650 bases of DNA from Escherichia coli (GTDB taxonomy: Bacteria > Pseudomonadota > Gammaproteobacteria > Enterobacterales > Enterobacteriaceae). The stretch lies in assembly GCF_003334405.1 (NCBI RefSeq), contig NZ_QOWM01000059.1. The stretch is one strand, 5' to 3'. The first letter of the stretch is position 1, and the number at the start of each line of letters is the position of its first letter. The notes beneath the pieces were generated by a model that searched no databases, was not told the DNA's origin, and worked only from the letters and a program-made list of their open reading frames with translations. Of this stretch, positions 1 through 650 are shown piece by piece. The position numbers were made by a program, and so were the translations under genes.

Positions 1-650
1 CTTTTCGCGCCGGTGTGTATTCCGGCTCCACCTGTCTGGCCAGTTGCTCCACCGTCAGCCCGCACTGCGCAAGCCACGCCCGGCTTTCACTGCTCACGCG
101 GTCTGCCCGGATTTCTTCCTCCAGCCTGTCCAGCAGCCGCACCAGTTCAGCCGGGAACACCACGCCGTGGCCGTTCTCACTCCCTTCCTGCTGGAGCGTC
201 TCTGCCAGGCTGCGCCGCTGCGCTTTTTCCCGCTCGCCGTTCTCTGTCTCGACCCGGATGAGCGGCGTGAAGCTTCCCGGCTCGTATACCGTCTGGATAC
301 GTGTGGTGTCAGTCTGCACCGTCGTCAGCCTGTCTCCGTCCCAGCCATACCACGTCACCTCCGGTTTACGCGACAGCGACATCCACCCCGTCAGGTCACG
401 CTCCCGCCGCCAGACCCGTTTTGCCATTCGCCGTCCCAGCGGGTCGTAGAGGTAGCGGCTCTCGACCAGTGGCTCGCCATGCTGTATCCGCGTGTAGAAC
501 ACCAGGCGGTGCTGGCTGTCGTAGTGGTAGTGGTGGGTCCGCTCGTCGTCCGTCCGTATCACACCCGCCGGGATGCGGTCCGTCTTCTCCGTCAGCCTGC
601 CGTATTCATCGTGGCGGTAGACATAGTGCGCATCCTCCGCGATGCGGTTA
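1..650 (-). CDS. rhs: Rhs family YD-repeat protein, conserved core region; internal fragment, partial at both ends (N-terminus beyond position 650, C-terminus beyond position 1)
   Basis: Hand translation of the reverse complement in the frame with codons 649..647 down to 4..2 gives 216 codons with no stop. The product contains YD-repeat motifs ([39 protein letters not shown]) and matches my recollection of the E. coli RhsA/B/C/D core. GC about 64% with G/C-rich third positions, typical of Rhs cores. Paralog cannot be resolved from this window; the symbol is a family-level placeholder. Confidence 0.95.
32..253 (-). other. Glu/Arg-rich segment of the Rhs core lacking YD motifs, probably helical
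   Basis: Translation [74 protein letters not shown] is dense in E/R/Q/L/A and has no Y-x-Y-D pattern. Helical character is inferred from composition only, not modelled. Confidence 0.5.
326..625 (-). other. Block of four degenerate YD (Rhs) repeats within the Rhs core coding sequence
   Basis: Protein-level motifs fitting the YD-repeat pattern (Y-x-Y-D-x2-G-R-L or close variants) at about 593..625 ([11 protein letters not shown]), 500..529 ([10 protein letters not shown]), 428..454 (YLYDPLGRR) and 326..352 (WYGWDGDRL). Spacing is about 25-35 residues. These are degenerate at the DNA level, not nucleotide direct repeats. Confidence 0.8.

Follow-up and report, generated by a model that had tools for sequence, protein, structure and literature searches.

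How does a 650-bp stretch of Escherichia coli DNA, referred to here in its whole length as the window, come to carry about 64% G+C in a host of about 51%, and in which sense can such DNA be called foreign? The original prediction, which was made from the letters of the sequence, recognized part of an Rhs core and interpreted its composition as the mark of horizontal acquisition. Below we consider what the window is, how far it departs from its host, where the excess resides and which process could have produced and preserved it.

Identity of the Window

All 650 bases are identical to two mismatch-free copies in E. coli K-12 MG1655, one in rhsD and the other in the rhsE pseudogene:

rhsD copy: NC_000913.3, locus L002 23072-23721, reverse complement of the window
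rhsE copy: locus L001 20001-20650, in a 5'-truncated pseudogene that adjoins ydcD and the ISAs1-family gene ydcC

The product of the minus strand, 216 residues long, corresponds to residues 938-1153 of the 1426 residues of RhsD. It matches the NCBIfam equivalog NF041261 (RHS_core) with E = 1.4e-141 and 473.6 bits over profile positions 941-1156 of 1261, a score that stays below the whole-protein cutoff of 2000 bits because the window holds only a 216-aa fragment. Together with the complete identity to annotated rhsD and RHS core genes, this match bears out the predicted Rhs identity. A Pfam scan of the 216-aa fragment returned only insignificant RHS_repeat matches (E = 0.69 and 5.4), and an Rfam search of both strands at E <= 1 found no RNA family in the window.

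Solved structures of Rhs shells, namely Tse5 (8cp6; E = 1.5e-8) as well as 8qjd from Salmonella bongori and 7q97, match residues 2-136 of the product, and this places the window in the part of the gene that specifies the C-terminal portion of the beta-cocoon shell. More precisely, it codes for the last YD-repeat strands of this shell and for the region leading towards the motif that ends the core. YD-peptide repeats of the Rhs core are present in the translation, and their key residues are invariant in an alignment of 15 sequences (A1) that comprises relatives at 36-80% identity. The features of the window are the following:

1..650, minus strand, frame running from position 649 down to 2: internal segment of the Rhs core open reading frame, stop-free, with GC1/2/3 = 0.68/0.45/0.80
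593..625, minus strand: YD-type repeat in the translation, Y11, D14 and G17 invariant
503..529, minus strand: YD-type repeat YHYDSQHRL in the translation, H39, D44, R48 and L49 invariant
428..454, minus strand: YD-type repeat YLYDPLGRR in the translation, Y66, Y68, D69, R73 and R74 invariant
326..352, minus strand: WYGWDGDRL motif in the translation, the most conserved stretch, Y101, G102 and G105 invariant
2..649, plus strand, frame 1: antisense stop-free frame (shadow ORF), zero stops

A search for repeats in the window revealed nothing structural; only imperfect two-copy families of 15-18 nt were found, which reflect the periodicity of the YD-repeat coding sequence.

The two stop-free frames lie on opposite strands and are codon-aligned. 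In its full extent the antisense open stretch spans 356 codons (L002 22824-23891), matches rhsD sense codons 855-1210 exactly and is bounded by sense codons of the type TTA, CTA or TCA at rhsD 854 and 1211, which act as stops on the other strand. All three codons are absent from the window, because the GC3-rich codon usage of the sense strand leaves them out. This absence explains the antisense frame, which we reject as a gene.

The window segment is distributed patchily among strains. Megablast detected it in 3,724 of 5,426 complete E. coli genomes, at 10,781 places in total (one to six per genome, median three), and the annotation beneath these matches reads rhsD or "RHS element core protein"; the best place is at least 99% identical to the window in 1,790 E. 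coli records. Fifteen of the 10,781 places are borne on plasmids, the others being chromosomal.

Organization of the Rhs Loci

The core of rhsD extends from the start codon to the motif PLQQIDPMGL (residues 1-1258; 3,774 nt) and has 63.3% GC with a GC3 of ~0.754. The motif itself occupies residues 1249-1258 of RhsD and is not part of the window, whose end is 96 codons upstream. In the 150-bp GC profile the composition falls abruptly after the core, the tip of 507 nt having 36.5% GC and a GC3 of 0.178, so that K-12 rhsD displays a GC-rich core of ~3.7 kb that ends in PxxxxDPxGL and gives way to a variable, AT-rich tip. The same layout is found in rhsA, rhsB and rhsC, whose cores have 61.3-61.7% GC and whose tips are likewise AT-rich. 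On the upstream side, the core of rhsD starts immediately after a leader of 430 bp with 28% GC (L002 19832-20261, in the ybbP-rhsD intergenic region).

Downstream of rhsD lie ybbC, a member of the PF15631 family and an immunity candidate, and the pseudogene fragments ylbH/ybbD; downstream of rhsE lies the small ORF ydcD. All of these are AT-rich (27-45% GC), and both the small downstream ORF and the orphan core/tip fragments of Rhs elements are thus present at the K-12 loci. The rhsE tip and ydcD are followed immediately by ISAs1-family transposase genes (L001 16223-18589), comprising ydcC (ISEc5) and a frameshifted copy; this pair corresponds to the "H-repeat" component of classical Rhs elements. 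The composite of GC-rich core and AT-rich tip is the description given by the Hill laboratory and summarized later (PMC2935791; PMC7259588).

A further arrangement is seen at the rhsE locus of E. coli Z226-6 (NZ_CP159641.1, L092 5896-7890), where an intact vgrG overlaps 46 bp identical to positions 1-46 of the window, and short Rhs remnants follow vgrG and this 46-bp stretch. It appears that vgrG came to adjoin the tail of the Rhs core through an internal deletion. Since vgrG abuts an Rhs remnant in this strain, the rhsE locus would ancestrally have been linked to VgrG and hence to a type VI secretion system (T6SS). Within ~20 kb of the K-12 rhsD (L002) and rhsE (L001) loci, no vgrG or other T6SS gene is annotated; K-12 is not known to possess a functional T6SS.

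Base Composition and Codon Usage Against the Host

The window contains 82 A, 239 C, 179 G and 150 T. G+C thus amounts to 418 of 650 bases (64.3%), exactly the number that had been obtained earlier by hand. All 100-bp sub-windows have between 62 and 67% GC; the composition is therefore uniform, with no local patch behind the overall value. As a sample of the host we took the rhsD and rhsE loci of K-12, together with ~20 kb of neighboring DNA to either side, and the ribosomal-protein/tufA/fusA region. The overall GC contents of these loci are 49.2%, 51.8% and 49.7%, far from the host average close to 64%, with similar codon usage, at which the anomaly would disappear according to the original prediction.

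Under a model with 50.8% GC, the binomial probability of at least 418 G+C in 650 positions is 2.6e-12. None of 10,779 overlapping 650-bp windows from ~110 kb of K-12 DNA outside Rhs elements reached 64.3% (mean 50.5%, sd 4.5, maximum 61.1%; z = +3.0 for the window), and the value is therefore strongly atypical for a host of ~51% GC, as had been proposed. A strong anomaly also emerges from the comparison with flanking genes that had been suggested at the same time: GC3 is 0.80 in the window vs. 0.56 +/- 0.07 (maximum 0.73) in 58 flanking coding sequences, and 0.51 in ribosomal/EF genes. The synonymous codon usage of the window is also distinct from that of its flanks (chi2 = 172, df 41, p = 6e-18), the chi2 per codon being 0.80 vs. 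a flank-gene median of 0.18, with CGG, ACG, GAG, GTG and AGC strongly preferred. Both base composition and codon usage of the window hence differ significantly from those of the host. That this anomaly is the one long known for Rhs cores, and that it has been understood as horizontal acquisition, is stated in the literature: a passage of PMC7259588 that cites Hill et al. (1994) reads it as introduction from a GC-rich organism, and so does PMC2935791.

Homologous Segments in Other Hosts

Homologous segments were sought with the pattern [TVF][WFY]YGW[DE]GD and the alignment of 15 relatives, by which 70 loci were recovered from one-genome-per-species contigs. GC contents were compared in the 43 loci that have at least 3 kb of distant flank, with 3-12 kb of local flank as background. 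In 34 of these 43 loci the segment exceeds its background, by 4.3 points on average over all of them. Segment GC follows host GC only in part (r = 0.66, slope 0.54), and the fitted line crosses y = x at ~65.6%.

The elevation is seen in nearly all of the enteric hosts, where the segment lies 1 to 19 points above its background. Examples are E. albertii (+4 and +13), Yokenella (+14), Citrobacter youngae (+3 and +19), Phytobacter (+8 and +11) and Buttiauxella (+7 and +8). Segments in GC-rich hosts are level with their backgrounds or slightly lower, as in Pseudomonas MRCP1333 (66.9% vs. 68.9%), Paracidovorax (72.4% vs. 72.5%), Burkholderia (66.2% vs. 67.3%) and Delftia (65.3% vs. 68.0%), and those of low-GC hosts are low, with 45.4% in Pragia and 41.0% in Acinetobacter. 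The fold therefore does not need high GC, and the enteric copies look as if their composition had been brought in from elsewhere. Among 100,044 species genomes no close GC-rich donor was found: the close relatives all belong to Enterobacteriaceae, and those relatives from GC-rich hosts that match the window in composition share only 27-38% protein identity with it.

Several individual loci deserve mention in their own right. Citrobacter youngae ATCC 29220 carries two Rhs copies (L011 10001-10654 and L012 2861-3514), both with 62% protein identity to the window, of which one has 55.7% GC and a GC3 of 0.65 and the other 66.7% and 0.84; the two may differ in residence time or stem from separate introductions. 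Pseudomonas sp. RIT-PI-AD (L057 3134-3541) shows a reverse anomaly, its segment having 47.8% GC (GC3 0.36) vs. a background of 60.8%. Rhs segments resembling those of E. coli (79-97% protein identity) were also met on short "non-enteric" contigs (L004, L010, L031 and L043), which come from a Collinsella MAG, a Bacillota MAG, Jeotgalibacillus sp. ET6 (270 bp, coverage 0.77) and an "UNVERIFIED_CONTAM" Acidovorax. These segments most likely represent contamination during assembly or binning and not transfer.

Probable Origin of the GC Richness

We consider that the GC richness of the window is probably a synonymous legacy of an origin at ~65% GC, which is retained in the Rhs core and slowly ameliorates in enteric bacteria. 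The Rhs core lineage would have gained its composition in a genome of ~65% GC and would then have entered enteric bacteria by horizontal transfer, where it may drift only slowly towards the composition of the host while recombination between copies would both spread and homogenize it. The core codes for the beta-cocoon shell, built of YD repeats, that belongs to a polymorphic toxin, and it is followed by an exchangeable AT-rich tip and a putative immunity gene. The GC-rich donor and the timing of the transfer are what we infer from the present pattern. In any case, "foreign" should not be read as "recent", since the window occurs in 3,724 of 5,426 E. coli genomes and GC-elevated relatives are present in enterics such as E. 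albertii and Citrobacter.

Two observations stand against a purely passive legacy. All E. coli variants of the window, although up to 10% diverged, have 63-65% GC and keep a GC3 of 0.77-0.82, which speaks for long persistence, and the Rhs family has been described as old in Enterobacteriaceae, with mostly vertical inheritance (PMC2935791; Jackson et al., 2009). That no close donor was found among the relatives recovered likewise counts against the proposed origin.

Recombination Between Copies and Direction of Change

The same two observations could be accommodated if the high GC were actively maintained. Recombination or conversion among copies might then act through GC-biased gene conversion or the re-import of GC-rich alleles, and thereby offset AT-biased mutation. 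We regard such maintenance as unlikely; its main support is the relation between rhsD and rhsE. These two align over 1,566 nt with 95.8% identity and 65 mismatches, at which rhsE carries G or C 45 times and rhsD 26 times. An 848-bp tract (L002 22874-23721 in rhsD, L001 20001-20848 in rhsE) that contains the whole window is free of mismatches, and all 65 mismatches are confined to the remaining 718 nt of the alignment. The tract ends exactly at position 1 of the window, the next base (L002 23722) being the first mismatch. Were the mismatches spread uniformly, a gap of this kind would have a probability of 0.46^65; the copies are therefore mosaics that arose by gene conversion or recombination. 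Literature from the Hill laboratory reportedly describes a "mosaic protein", which is consistent with the rhsD/rhsE mosaic. As the window lies inside the identical tract, it is assignable neither to rhsD as opposed to rhsE nor to one particular strain. Partners for conversion are also at hand in the multiple copies per genome (median three, up to six).

Conversion homogenizes copies, however, and need not raise their GC content. The comparison across species likewise argues against active maintenance: cores are not elevated in GC-rich hosts and are low in low-GC hosts, and there is therefore no universal GC-raising force acting on the family.

The direction of change within E. coli was followed in 15 variants fetched at 90.4-99.8% identity to the window, with 16 sequences in the substitution count and with the K-12 rhsA/B/C segments, E. 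albertii and Pseudocitrobacter as outgroups. A change was polarized where at least two outgroup groups agreed and none supported the other allele; the 145 variable sites accordingly comprise 70 biallelic polarized, 63 unpolarized and 12 multiallelic ones. Within these 70 of 145 sites, all from the Rhs segment alone, changes from G/C to A/T (S→W) outnumber those from A/T to G/C (W→S) by 39 to 15 (p = 0.0015 against 1:1), which speaks against maintenance. At third codon positions, of which 173 are S and 43 W, there are 19 S→W changes and 6 W→S changes. These counts imply an equilibrium GC3 of 0.56, equal to that of the host flanks, and their ratio is indistinguishable from the 3.2:1 expected for relaxation towards host composition.

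This skew is carried mostly by singletons (23 to 4); among the other changes the two directions come close to parity (16 to 11), a point in favor of maintenance. Since a mutational bias towards A/T raises the number of recent S→W changes whatever the gene, the skew weighs less as evidence for amelioration; the direction of change agrees with amelioration and is not decisive against active maintenance. In its stronger form, the argument for maintenance holds that the enteric GC excess is a steady state and not a fading relic, upheld by recombination from copy to copy and from strain to strain. Such a steady state, which we think quite improbable, would explain how an ancient family can stand at a GC3 of ~0.8 in a host whose flanks have 0.56, and the 848-bp rhsD/rhsE tract would be one of the conversion events involved. 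Altogether, the cross-species and substitution-direction results favor slow amelioration of a core of ~65% GC over maintenance by recombination.

Amino Acids, Expression and the Source of the Excess

A different account would place the cause in the protein itself, since Gly, Arg, Asp, Pro and Ala, all with GC-rich codons, are abundant in YD-repeat shells. The GC1 of 0.68 points in this direction, and when the amino acids of the window are recoded with host codon frequencies, 55.7% GC is predicted, ~5 points over the host mean. The observed value of 64.4% nonetheless lies far above this expectation, so that of the 14 points of excess ~5 are due to amino acids and ~9 to synonymous sites; the largest excess sits at synonymous third positions (0.80 vs. 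0.56), and homologues of the same fold have only 41-45% GC in low-GC hosts. We therefore reject amino-acid composition as the main cause, and a protein-imposed GC content seems to us very unlikely.

That the gene is highly expressed and owes its codon bias to translational selection, or that the source genome is GC-rich and the anomaly hence absent, can practically be dismissed. The preference for C-ending codons in Asp, Tyr, His, Asn, Phe and Ile does recall highly expressed E. coli genes. The CAI, however, is 0.314 when referred to the highly expressed set and falls below the flank median of 0.385, which excludes translational selection as the cause; CGG, AGG, ACG, GAG, GTG and GGG are preferred in the window and nearly absent from ribosomal/EF genes, and the source is E. 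coli itself by sequence identity (100% to rhsD/rhsE, and 100% in over 1,700 E. coli genomes). The earlier suggestion to compare the codons with those of highly expressed host genes thus yields a clear distinction, in CAI as well as in GC3 (0.80 vs. 0.51). The 64% GC of the window is mainly a synonymous-site signal, with preferences unlike those of the E. coli genome or of its highly expressed genes.

Comparison With Known Systems

The slowly ameliorating core of ~65% GC origin is the published interpretation, with which the work of Wang, Zhao and Hill in 1998 is reportedly in line, and the window therefore contains nothing new. The feature is already known in every respect, its composite structure having been standard since the work of the Hill laboratory in the 1990s. 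Its significance beyond a correct annotation is small, and it is useful mainly as a positive control for the reading of a sequence from its letters alone. Of modest interest is that a family considered ancient in enterics stays so far from the composition of its hosts.

The nearest known systems are RhsD of K-12 (b0497) and the rhsE pseudogene (b1456), which form part of the RhsDE subfamily in clade I of Jackson et al. (2009). Nucleotide identity with the window is 100%, and the GC-rich core, the AT-rich tip and the small downstream ORF are the same, without any difference. RhsA, RhsB and RhsC of K-12 (RhsABCF subfamily) resemble RhsD in the length of the core, in its PxxxxDPxGL end at residue 1238 and in the change from GC-rich core to AT-rich tip. 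They differ in the window segment itself, with 76.5-77% nucleotide identity and a GC3 of 0.74-0.755 vs. 0.80.

More distant are the Rhs effectors of T6SSs, such as Tse5 of P. aeruginosa (8cp6) and those of Salmonella bongori (8qjd) and Photorhabdus (7q97), whose shells match the product of the window with E = 1.5e-8 to 9e-5, a similarity that is distant and covers only ~135 residues. Linkage to VgrG is seen at the rhsE locus of Z226-6, whereas the K-12 rhsD and rhsE loci are without an annotated vgrG.

The broadest comparison is that with acquired genes of atypical composition, for which the concept of amelioration is said to go back to Lawrence and Ochman. Like such genes, the window is atypical in GC, GC3 and codons, varies among strains and shows an S→W bias towards the host equilibrium. 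Most E. coli islands are AT-rich. The window differs from such acquired genes in that it is GC-rich and not AT-rich, and in that it is no recent arrival but widespread in Escherichia and its relatives.
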